NCBI GenBank assembly: GCA_046331425.1
Contig: JAXLQU010000013.1
Coordinates: forward strand, 24,458 to 88,457
Direction: 5' to 3'
Length of the DNA: 64,000 nt
Source of the DNA: Acidobacteriota bacterium
GTDB taxonomy: Bacteria > Acidobacteriota > Polarisedimenticolia > J045
Shown here: piece after piece, positions 2,425-9,073 of the stretch
How positions within the stretch are numbered: position 1 is the stretch's first letter
Layout of the letters: each line of letters opens with the position of its first letter
Notes under the pieces: generated by a model
What the model was told of the DNA's origin: nothing
Database searches by the model: none
Seen by the model: only the letters and a program-made list of their open reading frames with translations
Program-made: the position numbers and the translations under genes

Positions 2425-2952
2425 CTAGCCTCGCGGCACTTCTTCCGTCGTGTGTGCGCCCCATCGAACCAACAGCGGCATGGCGATGGCCCAGATGAGC
2501 GCGACGAGTATCAAGCTAAGTATCGGCGACCGGCCCAACGATATCGCGCCGAGCCCAGCACCCGCAAAGTAGGAAAACGGCGCGGCGATGGCGCCGAGCG
2601 TTGCGGCGAGCACGGGCCTGCCTTTCAAGAACGAGAAACCGAACGGCACCGCGGTGGCGAACATCCCCCACAGGACCGACCACCACGGCGGCATCCAGAC
2701 ACCCGCCAACAGCGGTGTGTTGAGAGAGAGCATTCCTGCCTGGACCAACGCCAGGTCGGCAAACGGGCCGAGCAGCGCGGCAAGCACGCCGAATCGCAGC
2801 GTCGATGTGAAGCGGCCGGAAAGGATGGCGTTGATCAACAGGACAGGAACACCAGCCAGTGCGGCGGCGGTGCTCTGGCCACGAGCCGCGAGCATTGCTA
2901 CGGCGAACCAACCAAGCTGCGCCATGATGATCGACAAGACGCGGCGGATCAT
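2425..2952 (-). CDS. DUF2878 family membrane protein
   Basis: 175 aa, hydrophobic throughout. Its stop abuts the DUF1295 start (2423/2425). Standard member of cfa-associated clusters. Confidence 0.65.
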   Translation of the reverse strand: MIRRVLSIIMAQLGWFAVAMLAARGQSTAAALAGVPVLLINAILSGRFTSTLRFGVLAALLGPFADLALVQAGMLSLNTPLLAGVWMPPWWSVLWGMFATAVPFGFSFLKGRPVLAATLGAIAAPFSYFAGAGLGAISLGRSPILSLILVALIWAIAMPLLVRWGAHTTEEVPRG

Positions 2953-3074
2953 CGCGGCACTGTTTCGTCGTGCGGCCTCGTCATTGCGGCACCGTGCCGT
3001 CGTGCGCTCTGGTCATTGCAGCACCGTGCCGTCGCGCGAGCTTGTCAATGCGGCGTCTTTCGGCGTGGCTCGCA

Positions 3075-3832
3075 TCAGGAATTGCCGCGGCCAGGATGCG
3101 GAACGATCGGCACCCGCTTGATCCAGAGCTTGAGCGCTTGCCAGTGAATCGCGCCAACCACTTTGGCGGTCATCAACGGGAAACTAGCGAGGCATCCCGC
3201 CAGCGACGCGCCGGTTATCTCCCGTCGCGTGAGGGTCACCGACGATTCGAACAGAGGACCTTCGGCTTGATCACTGTCGATCTGAACCGTGAGACGCTCG
3301 CCCGGCTTGGAGACACGGAAACGATAGTTGGCCTGCAGGCTCATGAACGGCGAGACATGGAATTGCTTCTTTTGATCGAAGCGCATGAGGCCATCGGCTG
3401 GCTGCTGATGGCGAGCATCGAGTAAGTACAGATGCCGTTCGTGCCAGGGCGTGTTGTGCACCTCGGCGATGACCGCTTGCAGCTCCGTGGCGTCGGCATC
3501 GTAGAGATAGAAAAACTCACCGGGTTGAAGACATGTCCGAAGTGACGGAGGTTGGTGAGCAGGTGGACTGGGCCGGTTGGCCGGAAGCCGGCGTTCTTCT
3601 CGCAGAAATCGCGCGCGGCAACGTCGAGCGGCGTGGTGGCCTCGCCGAAATGGTCGCTGCGCTTGAAGCGAACGGGCGCGGGGCGATGTGTCGACCACAA
3701 CCATCGGCGCTTGAAGACAACGTCGAGTTCGCAAAGGTCGAGCATCGTCATGTAGACGCTGTAGGAAAACTTGTGCTCGACCGGCCGCAGTCGGCGATGG
3801 CGTACGCGGCCGACGTAGAGCGCGCTGTTCAC
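3075..3832 (-). CDS. DUF1365 family protein with a 1-nt frameshift near 3511-3520. The N-terminal part lies in the frame of ORF 3341..4495 and the C-terminal part in the frame of ORF 3075..3734.
   Basis: N-terminal segment NSALYVGRVRHRRLRPVEHKFSY...HFGHVFNPVSF and C-terminal segment FFYLYDADATELQAVIAEVHNTPWHERHLYLL...FHVSPFM lie in different frames. Adding one A to the A5 run at 3511-3515 restores NPVSFFYLYD. A GTG start at 3832 overlaps the stop of the upstream gene (GTGA). Confidence 0.7.
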
Positions 3833-5148
3833 GGAATGGACTCGGTGATGGCAGTCAGGTCGAGGCCGAAGTAGCGCGTGGCAGCCAAGGCGCTGTCGAC
3901 GCCGTCCTCGTGAAAGCCGTATTTCCAATAGGCGCCGCAGTAGTGGACACGATCGGCGCCGCTGATTTCGGCGTGACGCGCTTGCGCGGCGATTGTTTGC
4001 GGCGTGTACACCGGGTGATGGTAGCGCAGTCGTTTGAGGATCTTGCGTGGGTCGATGCGCTCTTCGCAGTTGAGCGAAACCAACAGCGGCGTCGGGCACG
4101 GGATTGCCTGCAGCAGGTTCATCCAATAGGTCACGGCCACGCGCTCCTGCGCGGCAGCCGGGACGAGGTAGTTCCAACTGGCCCAGGCGCGGCGCGAGCG
4201 CGGCATGAGCGAGGCGTCGGTGTGCAGCGTGACATCGTTGAGCTGGTACGGGATGGCGCCGAGCACCTCGCGCTCCGCTTGGGTTGGGGCACTCAACAGG
4301 GCGAGTGCTTGGTCGCTGTGTGTGGCCAGCACCACGTGATCGAACCGCTCTTCGTCGCCGTTGGCGAACGTAAGTTGCACGTGATCGGAATGGCGGGTGA
4401 CGCGCTGCACCTTGGCTGTGAGACGGATTCGCGCTTGAAACGGTGCGATCAGCGCCTGGACGTAGCGGCGCGAACCGCCCGTTATGAAGCGCCACTGCGG
4501 CGCATTACGTACGTCCAGCACGCCGTGGTGATTGAAAAAGCGCACGAAGTGTCGCGCGGGGAAGTGATTCATCATCTCGGGCGCGGCCGACCAGATCGCT
4601 GCGCCGATCGGCCGTGCGTACTGCTCGATGAACTGCGGTGAGTAGCGGCGGGCGCGGAGATAGTCGGCAAGTCCGGTCGATTCGTCGATTGCCGCGCTGT
4701 CGCTGCCAGGGTTAAGCAGTTCGTGATATTCGCGGCCGAATCGCAGGATGTCGCGCAGCAATCGCCAGAATCGCGGACGCAAGGCGTTGCTTGGTTGTGC
4801 GAATACGCCGCGCAGCGTTTCCCCACCATATTCCAGCCCGACGATCCCGCGGGTGTTGGCGCTGCGCGCGCGGTCATCGCGCACGCTGAAGCTCATCGAT
4901 GTCGCCTGCGACGCCACGCCGAGTGCTCGTAGGAGCGCGATGAAGTTCGGGTACGCGCGCTGATTGAAAACGATGAACCCCGTATCGACGACGTACTGCT
5001 GCCCCTCGACCTCGACGTCCTGCGTGTGCGTGTGCCCGCCCACGTAATCATTCGCCTCGAAAACGGCCAGATCGTGCCGCGCCGCCAACACCCGCGCCGC
5101 CACCAACCCCGAGATCCCCGTCCCCACCACCGCCACCCTCATCCACAC
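3829..5148 (-). CDS. NAD(P)/FAD-dependent oxidoreductase (amine oxidase-like flavoprotein of the cfa cluster)
   Basis: 439 aa. N-terminal Rossmann motif VAVVGTGISGLVAA. Conserved first gene of amine-oxidase/DUF1365/cfa clusters. Confidence 0.85.
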   Translation of the reverse strand: MWMRVAVVGTGISGLVAARVLAARHDLAVFEANDYVGGHTHTQDVEVEGQQYVVDTGFIVFNQRAYPNFIALLRALGVASQATSMSFSVRDDRARSANTRGIVGLEYGGETLRGVFAQPSNALRPRFWRLLRDILRFGREYHELLNPGSDSAAIDESTGLADYLRARRYSPQFIEQYARPIGAAIWSAAPEMMNHFPARHFVRFFNHHGVLDVRNAPQWRFITGGSRRYVQALIAPFQARIRLTAKVQRVTRHSDHVQLTFANGDEERFDHVVLATHSDQALALLSAPTQAEREVLGAIPYQLNDVTLHTDASLMPRSRRAWASWNYLVPAAAQERVAVTYWMNLLQAIPCPTPLLVSLNCEERIDPRKILKRLRYHHPVYTPQTIAAQARHAEISGADRVHYCGAYWKYGFHEDGVDSALAATRYFGLDLTAITESIP

Positions 5149-5166
5149 CTCACCACTTCACGCCGC

Positions 5167-5345
5167 AATCCGGGGACGGTCTACCTAAAGCGCTGTTAGC
5201 CGCGTGCACCTCGTCATAATTCGGGGACGGTCTACCTAAAGCGCTGTTAGCCGCGTGCACCTTGTCACAACGACCGTCGCTCACTCGCGTCGTGAGGTAG
5301 CGGGCTTGTCGGCTTACTCCGCTTTAGGTAAACCGTCCCCGAATT
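5167..5345. repeat. MITE-like element, copy 1, carrying an extra tandem left-end half copy
   Basis: A 51-bp direct tandem: 5167-5216 (aatccggggacggtctacctaaagcgctgttagccgcgtgcacctcgtca) and 5218-5267. TIR-L 5218-5243 (aattcggggacggtctacctaaagcg) is the reverse complement of TIR-R 5320-5345 (cgctttaggtaaaccgtccccgaatt). Confidence 0.7.
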
Positions 5346-5476
5346 GGCGGGGAGGTTACTTCAGTTCGCGGTGGAACTCTCGCTCGATGTCGGTGCGGAT
5401 GATGCGCACTGGATCGCGGCCGAGCTCGCTTCTCGCTCGTATCGCCCAGACGGTTCGACCGGACTAGAATGCCGGC

Positions 5477-6682
5477 ATGACTCAGACGCAGAAGTTTATC
5501 GAGCAAGAAGAACGGTACGGGGCGCACAACTATCACCCGCTGGATGTGGTGCTCACCAAAGGACAAGGGGCGTGGGTGTGGGACGTCGAGGGGCGCAAAT
5601 ACCTCGACTGCCTGGCTGCTTATAGTGCGGTGAATCAAGGCCACAACCATCCGCGGCTGGTCAAGGCGCTCAAAGATCAACTCGACAAGTTGGCGCTTAC
5701 GTCGCGCGCGTTTCGCAACGATCAACTCGGCGCGTTCTGCGAGGAGCTGTCGAAGGTCTGCGGGTTGCCGCGCGTGCTGCCGATGAATAGCGGCGCCGAA
5801 GCGGTGGAGACCGCGATCAAGGCGGTGCGCAAGTGGGGCTACACACTGAAGAAGGTCAAAGACGGCAAGGCCGATGTCATCGTGGCCGATGACAACTTCC
5901 ACGGCCGCACCATCACCATCGTCGGCTTCAGCAGCGAGGCGCAGTATCGCTCGGGGTTCGGGCCGTTCGCGCCCGGCTTCACCAGCGTGCTCTTCGGCGA
6001 TGCCAACGCGGTAGAGCGCGCGATCACACCCAACACGGTCGCCGTGTTGATCGAGCCGGTGCAGGGCGAAGCGGGAATCATCATTCCGCCGGCCGGTTAC
6101 CTGAAACAGTTGCGCGAGATCTGCACACGACATCGCGTGCTGTTGATCCTTGATGAAATTCAGTCGGGGTTGGGTCGCACGGGAAAGATGTTTGCGCACC
6201 ATCACCATGGAATTGCGCCCGACGGACTGATCGTCGGCAAGGCGCTGTCGGGTGGTTTGTATCCGGTCTCGGCCTTCGTGGCCACCGACGAAATCATGGA
6301 TGTGTTCAAGCCCGGCGATCACGGCTCGACCTACGGCGGCAACCCGCTGGCCGCGGCGGTCGCGCGCGAAGCGTTGCGCGTGTTGGTCGACGAGGGCTTG
6401 GTGGAAAACAGCGCCGCGATGGGACAACGCCTGCGCGACGGCATCATGAGCCTGCCTCGCACCAAGCTCGACAAGATCAAGCAGCTTCGGCAGATCGGCT
6501 TGTGGATTGGCCTGGAGTTGAAGCACGAGTTGGGCGGTGCGCGCCCTTACTGCGTGTCGCTGATGCAGCGCGGCATGCTGTGCAAGGACACTCACAAGCA
6601 CACCATTCGCTTGGCCCCGCCATTGGTGGTAACCGCTTCGGAGGTCGATTGGGCGGTCGAGCAGTTGGCCGCTGTGCTGTAG
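5477..6682 (+). CDS. rocD: Ornithine--oxo-acid aminotransferase (class III PLP-dependent aminotransferase)
   Basis: 401 aa. OAT-type sequence throughout: N-terminal EERYGAHNYHPL, DEIQSGLGRTG, PLP-lysine context LIVGKALSGG. Confidence 0.85.
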   Translation: MTQTQKFIEQEERYGAHNYHPLDVVLTKGQGAWVWDVEGRKYLDCLAAYSAVNQGHNHPRLVKALKDQLDKLALTSRAFRNDQLGAFCEELSKVCGLPRVLPMNSGAEAVETAIKAVRKWGYTLKKVKDGKADVIVADDNFHGRTITIVGFSSEAQYRSGFGPFAPGFTSVLFGDANAVERAITPNTVAVLIEPVQGEAGIIIPPAGYLKQLREICTRHRVLLILDEIQSGLGRTGKMFAHHHHGIAPDGLIVGKALSGGLYPVSAFVATDEIMDVFKPGDHGSTYGGNPLAAAVAREALRVLVDEGLVENSAAMGQRLRDGIMSLPRTKLDKIKQLRQIGLWIGLELKHELGGARPYCVSLMQRGMLCKDTHKHTIRLAPPLVVTASEVDWAVEQLAAVL

Positions 6683-6748
6683 CGATTTTCTGCACGCCGG
6701 CCGCAGCGAGGCTTTGGCGCATGCGGCTAGCAACGTAGAATTCGGCGC

Positions 6749-7678
6749 ATGAACACACGTGTCGTGCTTCAGGCTCGATGCAGCTCGTCGCGGCTGCCAG
6801 GCAAGGTGTTGCTGCCTGTCGCAGGGATGCCGTCGGTGGTGTTGTCGGCCAAACGCGCGGCGACGTCGGGGTTGGATGTGTTGATGGCCACCTCCACCGA
6901 TCCTAGCGACGATCACTTGGTGGATGTCGTGAAGAGCGCCGGCTTTCCTGTGATGCGTGGCCCGCTCGACGACGTCTTGCTGCGGTACGTCATGGCCACC
7001 GAAGATCTGGACGACGACGACATTGTGGTGCGATTGACTGCCGACAACGTGGTGCCCGACGGTCCGTATATCGACACGCTGATTGCAGCGTTGCACAAGC
7101 GCGAGGAGCCGTACCTCGGGCCGAGCCATCCTGCCGACGGAATGCCGCATGGTCTGTCGGTGGAAGTATTCACCGCGCGCGCATTGCGTGAGGCTGATCG
7201 ACTGACGCCGCGTCCTGAAGATCGCGAGCACGTCACGCCGTTCTTGCGCCGACGCTACGCCAAAGCGGTGTTTCGCCCCGAGTGGGCGGGCGATTTGTCA
7301 TCGGCGCACTTGGGATGCACGGTCGACACGCGTGCCGACTACGAGCGTGTCGCGCGCTTGATGGAAGGCGTGCGCAACCCACTGACCGCTTCGGCGAAGG
7401 AACTCTGCGTGCGCCTCGCCGTGCAGGAAGAGTTGGTGTTGTGTACCGCGTTCGTTGAATCGCTCAGCGATGCCGCGGCCGAGGCCGCACTGCAATCCGC
7501 GATCGACGAAGGTGTCGTGCAGTTCGTCGTGCACCCCGACCACACGCGCACGCAACAACTGCTCGCGCGCCTGCTCGCCCAGCGCTACGAAGGCCACTCC
7601 TTCATCCGCGTCACCGACGCCACCGACGTCCCCCCCGAAGCGCTAATCCGGGGACGGTTTACCTATTACTTCCGATAG
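6749..7678 (+). CDS. Cytidylyltransferase (CTP_transf_3; SpsF/PseF-like CMP-nonulosonate synthetase candidate). Its C-terminus runs into the MITE TIR.
   Basis: N-terminal VLQARCSSSRLPGKVLLPVAGMP, typical of SpsF/FlmC/PseF-like acylneuraminate cytidylyltransferases. The last ~12 codons (EALIRGRFTYYFR) are encoded by the inverted repeat at 7645-7668. Confidence 0.65.
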   Translation: MNTRVVLQARCSSSRLPGKVLLPVAGMPSVVLSAKRAATSGLDVLMATSTDPSDDHLVDVVKSAGFPVMRGPLDDVLLRYVMATEDLDDDDIVVRLTADNVVPDGPYIDTLIAALHKREEPYLGPSHPADGMPHGLSVEVFTARALREADRLTPRPEDREHVTPFLRRRYAKAVFRPEWAGDLSSAHLGCTVDTRADYERVARLMEGVRNPLTASAKELCVRLAVQEELVLCTAFVESLSDAAAEAALQSAIDEGVVQFVVHPDHTRTQQLLARLLAQRYEGHSFIRVTDATDVPPEALIRGRFTYYFR

Positions 7679-7841
7679 CGCGCGCGCCTGTCACAGCGCG
7701 TAGCTCCATGGCCGGGTGAAGCGTGGTTCGGCCCCGCAGCGAGGCCGGCCGGCGCATCGCCTCGCGCGCCTCCCGCCACCCTCCCTCCCCCGTCCGGCTT
7801 ACCAACGCGCAGCCCTGCTTTAGGTAGACCGTCCCCGAATT
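7645..7841. repeat. MITE-like element, copy 2 (197 bp) with ~24-bp terminal inverted repeats
   Basis: 7645-7668 aatccggggacggtttacctatta. 7818-7841 ctttaggtagaccgtccccgaatt is its reverse complement. Same TIR family as 5218-5345; the internal sequence is only partly related. Confidence 0.7.
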
Positions 7842-7882
7842 GGGCGGATGGCTTTGGACTAGGGCGGAACTTAGGTTGGAGG

Positions 7883-9073
7883 GTGCGGAGGACTGTGAGC
7901 GTGGCGCGGAAGACGCTGGGGTATGGGCGGCAACTCGTTGATGAGGAAGACGTTGCGGCGGTGGTCGAGGTGCTGCGCGGCGACTCGCTGACCTGCGGGC
8001 CGGCGATCGAGGCGTTCGAGCGGGCCCTGGCGGACACCTGCGGAGCCCGGCACGTGGTCGCGGTCAGCAACGGGACCTCGGCGCTACGCCTTATATATCG
8101 TGTCGCCGGGGTGGGGCCCGGCACCCGGGTCGGCGTCCCGGCCATCACCTTCGCCGCCACCGCCACGCAGGCGCTCGCACTCGGCGCCGAGGTGGTGCTG
8201 CTGGACGTCGATCCCACCACGCTGCTCCTCACCCCCGAAATCCTCGACGCCTGCCGCGAGCCTCTCGACTTCGTCGTGCCGGTGCACATGGCGGGACGTC
8301 TGTGCGACATGCAGGCGCTGGCCGACATCGCGCAACGCCGCGGTATCACGTTGCTCGAAGACGCCGCGCACGCACTCGGCTCGACACTCATCGATGGCAC
8401 ACGCTGCGGCGATCTAGCTTTCAGTCGCGGCGCAACGTTCAGCTTTCATCCGGTGAAGAACATCACCACTGCTGAAGGCGGCGCCGTGGCCGTCAACGAC
8501 GATGCGTGGGCCGCGCGGCTGAAGAGCCTGCGCCACCACGGTGTCGCACGCGACTCATTCCACGGCACGCTCGCCGCGCACGATGGCGGCGCCCCTTGGT
8601 ATCACGAGTTTCACGACATCTCCGGCAATGATCGCCTCTCCGACCTGCACGCCGCACTCGGCCTCTCGCAGCTTCGAAAGCTCGCGCGATTCAAAGCCGA
8701 ACGCGCCAACATTCATCAGCGCTATTGCGATGCGTTCTCCGCGCTCGATGGCGTAACGCTGCCGCCCGCCGCTCCGGGTCAACTCCCCTGCTGGCATCTG
8801 TTCCAACTACAACTCGACTGGAAGCAACTACAAATCACGCGCCGCGAGTTCTTCGCGCGCGCCGCCGCCGATGGGCTGCAGCTTCAAGTGCACTACATCC
8901 CGCTGCATCACCAACCGGTGCTGGCCTCATGCGCGCGCGCAAGCTCACTAGCCGGCGCCGACCACGCCTACCAACGATTGGTCACGCTCCCCTGCTTCCC
9001 CGGCTTTACCAGCTCACAACACTCGCACGTCATCGACTTCATCCTCTCGCTGTGCGAAAGGGTCACGGCATGA
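7883..9073 (+). CDS. pseC: UDP-4-amino-4,6-dideoxy-N-acetyl-beta-L-altrosamine transaminase (DegT/DnrJ/EryC1 family)
   Basis: 396 aa. N-terminal LGYGRQLVDEEDVAAVVEVLRGDSLTCGPAIEAFE, typical of PseC/DegT. PLP-lysine context SFHPVKNITTAEGG. An alternative GTG start at 7895 follows GGAGGA. Confidence 0.85.
   Translation: MRRTVSVARKTLGYGRQLVDEEDVAAVVEVLRGDSLTCGPAIEAFERALADTCGARHVVAVSNGTSALRLIYRVAGVGPGTRVGVPAITFAATATQALALGAEVVLLDVDPTTLLLTPEILDACREPLDFVVPVHMAGRLCDMQALADIAQRRGITLLEDAAHALGSTLIDGTRCGDLAFSRGATFSFHPVKNITTAEGGAVAVNDDAWAARLKSLRHHGVARDSFHGTLAAHDGGAPWYHEFHDISGNDRLSDLHAALGLSQLRKLARFKAERANIHQRYCDAFSALDGVTLPPAAPGQLPCWHLFQLQLDWKQLQITRREFFARAAADGLQLQVHYIPLHHQPVLASCARASSLAGADHAYQRLVTLPCFPGFTSSQHSHVIDFILSLCERVTA

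Follow-up and report, generated by a model that had tools for sequence, protein, structure and literature searches.

Genes resembling those of REP-associated tyrosine transposases (RAYTs; REP, repetitive extragenic palindrome) and having long terminal inverted repeats (TIRs) on either side have been described by Di Nocera, De Gregorio and Rocco (2013, PMC3733652), who named the genes TIRYT and the flanked units TIRtrons. Some of the TIRs share the motif GGGGWSAS, acidobacterial examples are included, and families of TIR repeats are dispersed as single units, dimers and groups. In REPIN-RAYT systems (REPIN, REP doublet forming a hairpin; Bertels and Rainey, 2011, PMC3116915; Bertels et al., 2017, PMC5581495), inverted doublets of short repeats form hairpins that are non-autonomous, extragenic, long-lived and vertically inherited, and that are tied to a RAYT gene carrying the same repeats in its flanks. 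Here we describe two small repeat elements that resemble both systems, located in a 64,000-nt stretch of an Acidobacteriota genome (GenBank assembly GCA_046331425.1, contig JAXLQU010000013.1, positions 24,458 to 88,457; the window). An initial annotation had labelled them MITE-like (miniature inverted-repeat transposable element) or REP-like repeats bracketing an ornithine aminotransferase gene (rocD) and a cytidylyltransferase gene beside a surface-glycan locus. Our analysis indicates that they are most probably non-autonomous, REPIN-like TIR repeats of a RAYT-type (Y1/HUH, IS200-like) system in an uncultured lineage of Acidobacteriota. The feature itself is real and non-random, and it belongs to a known class of system rather than revealing a new kind.

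The 24-mer AATYCGGGGACGGTYTACCTAAAG was found without mismatch at 5167-5190(+), 5218-5241(+), 5322-5345(-) and 7818-7841(-) of the window, and with three mismatches at 7645-7668(+), where the first 21 nt match and are followed by TTA instead of AAG. No such site is expected by chance (100 shuffles), the 14-nt core GGGGACGGTYTACC recovered the identical five sites, and an nhmmer profile built from 68 arms found no further arm in the 64-kb window. The motif search and the shuffles therefore confirmed the five copies, the two elements and the 51-bp tandem half-copy of the initial annotation, with the corrections that the first reverse copy starts at 5322 instead of 5320 and that the inverted repeats, called perfect over ~24 bp, are only 89% (element 1) and 90% (element 2) complementary.

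Element 1 consists of two 36-nt arms (5218-5253 and 5310-5345) around a non-conserved interior of 56 nt; both arms are of the AAAG type, which matches the left end of the RAYT cassette described below, and the element sits in the divergent spacer between an amine-oxidase-like gene (start 5148, minus strand) and rocD (start 5477). Element 2 pairs 21-nt arms (7645-7665 with 7821-7841) across an interior of ~155 nt; its left arm is an ATTA variant that overlaps the end of an open reading frame (ORF), and its right arm, at 7818-7841, is of the AAAG type. The two units of the tandem duplication at element 1 (5167-5217 and 5218-5268) share 94-96% identity, and the outer half-copy is able to pair with 5310-5346 in an alternative hairpin. 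When modelled as single strands of DNA, both elements adopt long hairpins, element 1 at -40.6 kcal/mol (z -7.6) and element 2 at -47.2 kcal/mol (z -2.9, terminal stem only); the composite 5160-5350 has z -5.2. No Rfam family was matched in a permissive scan of 4500-8500 or in a gathering-threshold scan of the whole window, and a promoter and terminator scan returned nothing inside the elements.

The motif is not confined to this locus, and the uniqueness that would have refuted the initial annotation does not hold. In an exact-match scan of one representative genome per species, the 19-mer TYCGGGGACGGTYTACCTA occurred on 37 stretches, 25 of them in the metagenome-assembled genome (MAG) CAZAHQ01 and eight in the MAG JANNUT01, both Acidobacteriota; the remaining four lie one each in four MAGs labelled as other phyla. 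CAZAHQ01 is the closest relative, with coding DNA 95-96% identical to that of the window, so that its repeat content is a fair proxy for that of the window genome. At up to four mismatches, 68 arms were collected from 33 stretches of CAZAHQ01 and JANNUT01, plus the five in the window, and they form 22 inverted doublets of 74-254 bp as well as solo arms and tandem groups. The conserved part of the arm reads AA-TTCGGGGACGGTYTACCTA and is followed by subfamily-specific extensions, while the interiors differ from copy to copy. No direct repeat that could be a target-site duplication flanks any of the 22 doublets; their outer flanks are C-rich on the 5′ side, and in about a quarter the outermost 12-mer CGTCCCCGRATT is present once more in tandem. 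By gene calls based on GC3 (G+C content at third codon positions), most copies lie at gene 3′ ends and some in divergent promoter regions. A stop codon falls 0-9 nt before the arm start in 15 of 69 arms, six of which share their AA with a TAA stop, and eight further arms have a stop inside the arm or element (23 of 69 altogether). The doublets typically occupy nearly all of short intergenic spacers. The 19-mer had no match in viral contigs, and a general metagenome scan with it returned only three short loci, with no RAYT among them.

Near-identical arms were also seen in contigs binned as Gammaproteobacteria (L031/L051/L052, one locus found in two ocean samples), Thalassospiraceae (L001), Chromatiaceae (L032) and Pirellulales (L033). 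They may reflect mis-binning or horizontal transfer, and the GC content of these contigs (0.59-0.63) does not discriminate between the two. A further repeat on the Pirellulales contig, GGGGACACC...GGTGTCCCC, is related to these arms but distinct from them, and is an exact fit to GGGGWSAS. Just outside the element, tandem duplication of the arm's outermost 10-13 nt is frequent, as in CGTCCCCGAATT-G-CGTCCCCGGATT (L003, L005, L014, L031 and L035), and GGGAAACCTA is repeated at the ends of related intact RAYT genes (L039 ~1420-1450; L040 ~1010-1060 and 1800-1860). Two JANNUT01 contigs (L021, positions 1-113, and L026, positions 3119-3203) both end in one tandem arm group with a 48-nt period, from which the repeats appear to break MAG assemblies.

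A RAYT remnant was detected by tblastn with the TIRYT sequences from the PMC3733652 supplement, the match lying immediately inside an arm in L036. On contig CAZAHQ010000118.1 (L038), a Y1-transposase gene remnant stands between inverted arms: the left arm (1067-1090) is a perfect AAAG type, and the right arm (1687-1710, AACTCGGGGACGTCATACCTATTTCGC; nhmmer E 1.2e-4) overlaps the 3′ end of the ORF. The remnant has MARTARIVVPGYPFHIVHRGN at its N-terminus and, besides carrying a frameshift, lacks a stretch of ~57 residues (~38-94 of K. versatilis ORF 2776, its best tblastn match) to which the HUH motif belongs; its C-terminal part keeps RYVENNPVRAKLV...WSS and GRKPK, and the YxxNP tyrosine motif is retained. 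Its homologues are ~225-aa PF01797 proteins, some of them named REP-associated tyrosine transposase. CAZAHQ01 has two arm subfamilies, one matching each end of this cassette, with 23 arms of the left-end AAAG type and 16 of the right-end ATTTC type, and its doublets join like with like (eight left/left and five right/right, with mixed ones rare). Furthermore, RAYT homologues that are intact (58-63% identity) have related, non-identical ends on both sides (TTTCGGGGTCAGACTAC in L048; CTAGGGACAGACTACGGG in L039 and L040), and share the overlap of the 3′ end with the gene and the tandemly duplicated outer sub-repeats; the similarity of the ends tracks that of the proteins. The closest intact RAYT, P0061, is 72% identical. 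Neither a regular-expression search of the window and all loci, combining HUH with YxxNP, nor tblastn in the window found a RAYT gene. The locus and its relatives present dispersed extragenic repeats, hairpin doublets without target-site duplications and arms that flank a RAYT-type gene, the last in the sister genome only, and present no intact HUH transposase with these arms, classical REP unit, DDE-derived MITE, composite transposon or integron attC site.

The short, non-coding build of the elements, their 21-36-bp inverted ends and the dispersal of copies in intergenic DNA would also suit classical MITEs, that is, deletion derivatives of DDE-transposase insertion sequences moved by cut-and-paste through double-stranded TIRs. 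Against such an origin, target-site duplications are missing from all 22 doublets, the interiors are unrelated between copies, and the arms bracket a Y1/RAYT-like gene instead. The doublets are palindromic derivatives of two left or two right ends, not deletion derivatives of the left...right kind. Beside the arms there was no sign of a DDE transposase: a Pfam scan of 71 neighbouring genes, in which a family occurring once (and so possibly a transposase) goes unlisted, returned only housekeeping families. We therefore regard classical MITEs as very unlikely. Family dispersal and folding bear out the initial annotation in describing non-coding, hairpin-forming repeats, and the REP-like half of its label holds; the MITE half, in the DDE sense, does not. 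Tn3-type ends (GGGG...TAAG with a 5-bp duplication), a palindromic AATT target duplication and DNA uptake sequences were considered as well and were rejected.

Among the described systems, the closest likeness is to the TIRYT arrangement of PMC3733652: a RAYT-like Y1 gene lies between long inverted repeats, the 3′ repeat overlaps the ORF end, and the repeats are dispersed at moderate copy number as singles, inverted dimers and groups. A motif of the GGGGWSAS type is present too (GGGGACGG here and GGGGACAC in the Pirellulales locus L033). The present arm sequence and host lineage are absent from that paper's text and supplement as far as these were readable, and the associated gene here is a pseudogene. 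The elements share with REPINs the features named at the outset, but differ in the unit: a classical REP is an imperfect palindrome of 20-40 nt that has GTAG at its terminus and short spacers of fixed length, whereas the present arm is non-self-complementary, its GTAG/GTAA is internal, and its spacers range from ~30 to 210 nt. The RAYT clade is also different, since relatives of the remnant pass Pfam Y1_Tnp but score 68-76 bits against NCBIfam REP_Tyr_transpos, below its 80-bit cut-off. Correia/NEMIS, ERIC and RUP elements are similar in having 75-250 bp, inverted ends and positions beside or inside gene ends, and in being co-transcribed hairpins able to alter the C-termini and expression of their neighbours; however, they derive from DDE-type parents, keep conserved interiors and are flanked by target-site duplications (for example TA for Correia), and none of these features was found here. 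The division into left/left and right/right doublets and the cross-species conservation at orthologous sites were worked out in this analysis.

In the model that we favor, the unit is a 21-36-nt arm made of AATTCGGGGACGGTYTACCTA and a subfamily-specific extension, the reverse strand of which (TAGGTAGACCGTCCCCGAATT) contains GTAG and CGTC. Two inverted arms enclosing 30-210 nt of unconstrained DNA make up the doublet, which is predicted to fold into a long hairpin as single-stranded DNA or RNA. By analogy with IS200/IS605 and REP/RAYT elements, the RAYT-encoded tyrosine transposase would recognise and cleave the folded single strand and would copy or maintain doublets in trans. Like those elements it would leave no target-site duplication, so the assignment to a RAYT/TIRYT system would explain why none was found. 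One doublet lies in the promoter spacer shared by rocD and the amine-oxidase-like gene, and the other truncated or capped an already decaying SpsF-aldo/keto-reductase fusion upstream of a conserved pse-like operon leader. The transcribed hairpin of element 2 would probably act as an intercistronic RNA structure.

Several observations weigh against this assignment. The only RAYT gene found with exactly matching arms is a pseudogene, HUH-deleted and frameshifted, and it belongs to the sister MAG, the genome of the window having been covered over 64 kb only; a scan of metagenome contigs for an intact cassette (arm, 120-150 nt, then RGN codons) had no match. Given the dead gene and the empty scan, any present-day activity of the family is doubtful. 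A single arm has no self-complementary stem longer than 4 bp and no terminal GTAG, which sets it apart from classical REPs; its GTAG/GTAA and CGTC lie within the arm, and GTAA is found in about half of the arms. The stop-codon statistics rest on a crude gene caller made for this analysis. No precise pair of filled and empty sites that would demonstrate mobility was recovered. The comparison with genomes lacking the insertion, which the initial annotation had proposed, did yield repeat-free outgroups (L042, L044 and L046), but their spacers are too diverged for a precise empty site, and in the three family-carrying genomes the site is filled throughout. Finally, the arm conservation and species-specific signatures presented next could reflect host function or gene conversion instead of a transposase.

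The JANNUT01 locus L037 is collinear with ~4950-8010 of the window and holds both elements at equivalent sites (Table 1), which indicates that the insertions predate the split of the two species. Identity between these loci is 0.52-0.61 at fourfold-degenerate sites, compared with 73 of 84 positions (87%) over all four arms (P 6e-8 versus 0.6) and 54 of 63 over the three arms unused in finding the locus (P 9e-6). The interior of the right element is weakly alignable (z 4) and that of the left is not (z 0). Between the window and the CAZAHQ01 locus L016, the element interior is 87% identical, third codon positions are 0.87-0.93 identical, and the arms match at 41 of 42 positions. The subterminal signatures at orthologous sites are species-specific, AAAG/ATTTC in the window and CAZAHQ01 versus AATA/AACT in JANNUT01. 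The arms have been maintained and the interiors have not, for which selection, gene conversion or transposase-driven turnover could each be responsible. It is possible, if on balance doubtful, that the arms, in species some 0.6 substitutions per neutral site apart, are actively maintained rather than decaying relics, and constitute a long-lived, vertically inherited REPIN-RAYT-like population in Acidobacteriota, perhaps co-opted as post-stop-codon or intercistronic hairpins. If true, the population would consist of end doublets of a TIR-type RAYT, left/left and right/right and non-palindromic, and would lie outside the proteobacterial RAYT groups in which such persistence was described.

The same conservation could belong to a structural or regulatory motif kept by the host, a binding site for a protein or RNase such as an intercistronic or post-stop RNA hairpin serving as terminator, stabiliser or processing signal, with the RAYT link being only historical. 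The excess of arm conservation over neutral expectation at orthologous sites of two species despite decaying interiors, the adjoining or internal stops at a third of the arms by the GC3-based calls (23/69), the filling of almost the whole of short spacers and the death of the only associated RAYT are all consistent with it. However, no Rfam family matches, no T-tract terminator signature is present, and the position is not uniform, some copies lying in divergent promoter regions; moreover, transposase-driven turnover or gene conversion, as known for REPs, explains the arm conservation equally well. A host motif is unlikely as the primary account, and it is compatible with the RAYT-repeat assignment, as it does not exclude a RAYT origin.

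The features of the window and the orthologous elements are collected in Table 1.

Table 1. Repeat elements, their orthologues and the adjoining genes (window coordinates unless a locus is named)
Feature	Position	Strand	Basis or remark
Extra left-type arm (AATCCGGGGACGGTCTACCTAAAGCGCTGTTAGCCG) + 15 nt	5167..5217	+	First unit of the 51-bp tandem duplication of the element 1 left half
Element 1, 128-bp inverted doublet	5218..5345	.	Motif matches, pairing, fold
Element 2, 197-bp inverted doublet	7645..7841	.	Motif matches, pairing, fold
Element 1 orthologue	L037 2608-2861	.	Collinear alignment
Element 2 orthologues	L016 965-1157 (CAZAHQ01); L037 179-399	.	Interior 87% identical in L016; L037 collinear
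SpsF-type cytidylyltransferase ORF, 309 aa	6749..7678	+	ORF; PF02348 on residues 5-172 only
Amine-oxidase-like flavoprotein gene	3829-5148	-	Divergent from rocD
Class-III aminotransferase gene (rocD-like)	5477-6682		Absent from this position in the outgroups
DegT/PseC-like aminotransferase gene	7883-9073		Follows the cytidylyltransferase in the outgroups too

The initial annotation had further suggested that the 2.3-kb segment with rocD and the cytidylyltransferase gene was mobilised as a unit, which the comparison with outgroups does not support. In L042, L044 and L046, the same DegT gene and the remainder of the pse-like operon come directly after the cytidylyltransferase, with no rocD, amine-oxidase-like gene or repeat motif nearby. 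This linkage in three repeat-free lineages indicates that the glycan operon is the native setting of the cytidylyltransferase. What is lineage-specific is confined to rocD and the neighbourhood upstream of it, and no observation links this difference with the repeats. Both elements are complete doublets in themselves, from a family whose members stand alone at dozens of unrelated loci, and since the whole arrangement is conserved in JANNUT01, nothing points to a recent event. A composite transposon, in which the two elements were the ends of a 2.7-kb unit that carried both genes to the glycan locus, would account for the inverted orientation and 96-100% complementarity of the outermost arms (5167/5218(+) and 7841(-)) and for the absence of rocD from this position in the outgroups. 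It is contradicted by the outgroup gene order, by which the cytidylyltransferase was not imported, by the lack of a duplication flanking the 2.7-kb unit, by the completeness of each end as a doublet and by the age and vertical inheritance of the arrangement, so that we consider it extremely unlikely.

At the other end of the segment, the cytidylyltransferase ORF extends 34 nt into the left arm of element 2, which supplies its last 11 codons (LIRGRFTYYFR) and the stop; the claim of the initial annotation that the native C-terminus had been lost to the element is borne out. The L037 orthologue also ends inside the arm (...IRGRFTEYFR before the stop, versus ...IRGRFTYYFR in the window). Most homologues are ~540-aa fusions of PF02348 with an aldo/keto reductase (AKR) domain (PF00248), and comparison with these full-length proteins identifies the 309-aa predicted product as a truncated SpsF-AKR fusion. 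Residues ~229-298 align to the first ~80 residues of the reductase domain, without its DTA..YG motif (alignment A2). No leftover coding sequence of the missing ~230 AKR residues was found inside element 2. In the nearest outgroups the protein is shortened to degenerate forms of 392 and 365 aa with no repeat present, so the reductase half was already decaying when the repeat arrived; the present stop was set by the repeat, possibly with an accompanying deletion. The ~70-residue reductase stub is well conserved between the window and L037 despite the loss of the catalytic motif, and may still be structurally needed.

Conserved inverted ends, a variable centre and length, and the position of one copy upstream of a surface-glycan operon might also suggest targets of site-specific recombination, either invertons or integron-like attC sites. 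However, the ends read AATTCGGGG...CCCCGAATT and contain no R''/R' core (RYYYAAC / GTTRRRY), the copies are dispersed singly rather than arrayed, and most lie at gene 3′ ends instead of promoters. No integrase or invertase was seen nearby in the neighbour scan, which omitted singleton families. The probability of such targets is close to negligible.

The repeats thus define, by sequence and by linkage to a RAYT-type gene, what is probably a new RAYT-associated family (a TIR-repeat variant) of an uncultured acidobacterial lineage, persisting at shared sites across species with conserved arms. One copy is documented capping a decaying bifunctional gene of a glycan pathway, and the family accounts for breaks between contigs and for unusual ORF ends in these MAGs. 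Its doublets are also a warning that paired repeats are no proof that the genes they enclose were mobilised.

Some features of the surrounding non-coding DNA were recorded as well. A ~40-nt block, GGGCGGATGGCTTTGGACTAGGGCGGAACTTAGGTTGGAGG, runs from element 2 to the DegT start (7842-7882) and is identical in L037 and L016, and the repeat-free outgroups L042 and L044 have a recognisable version, GGATGGC...GGAACCTAAGTT, upstream of DegT; the block is probably a promoter or leader of the pse-like operon, and element 2 stops exactly at its edge. TAGAAT boxes resembling -10 elements stand at 5465-5470 and 6736-6741, their ends 6-7 nt ahead of the start codons (ATG) of rocD (5477) and the cytidylyltransferase gene (6749), a spacing that suggests leaderless transcripts; the rocD box is conserved in L037, and the other belongs to the only sigma-70-like match of the promoter scan. 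Elsewhere, a tandem array at 2949-3054 comprises 3.3 copies of a 32-nt unit, TCATTGCGGCACCGTGCCGTCGTGCGACCTCG, with 81% matches; a small palindrome, GGCAC-C-GTGCC, lies within the unit ahead of CGTC, and the unit occurs at this site only within the window.

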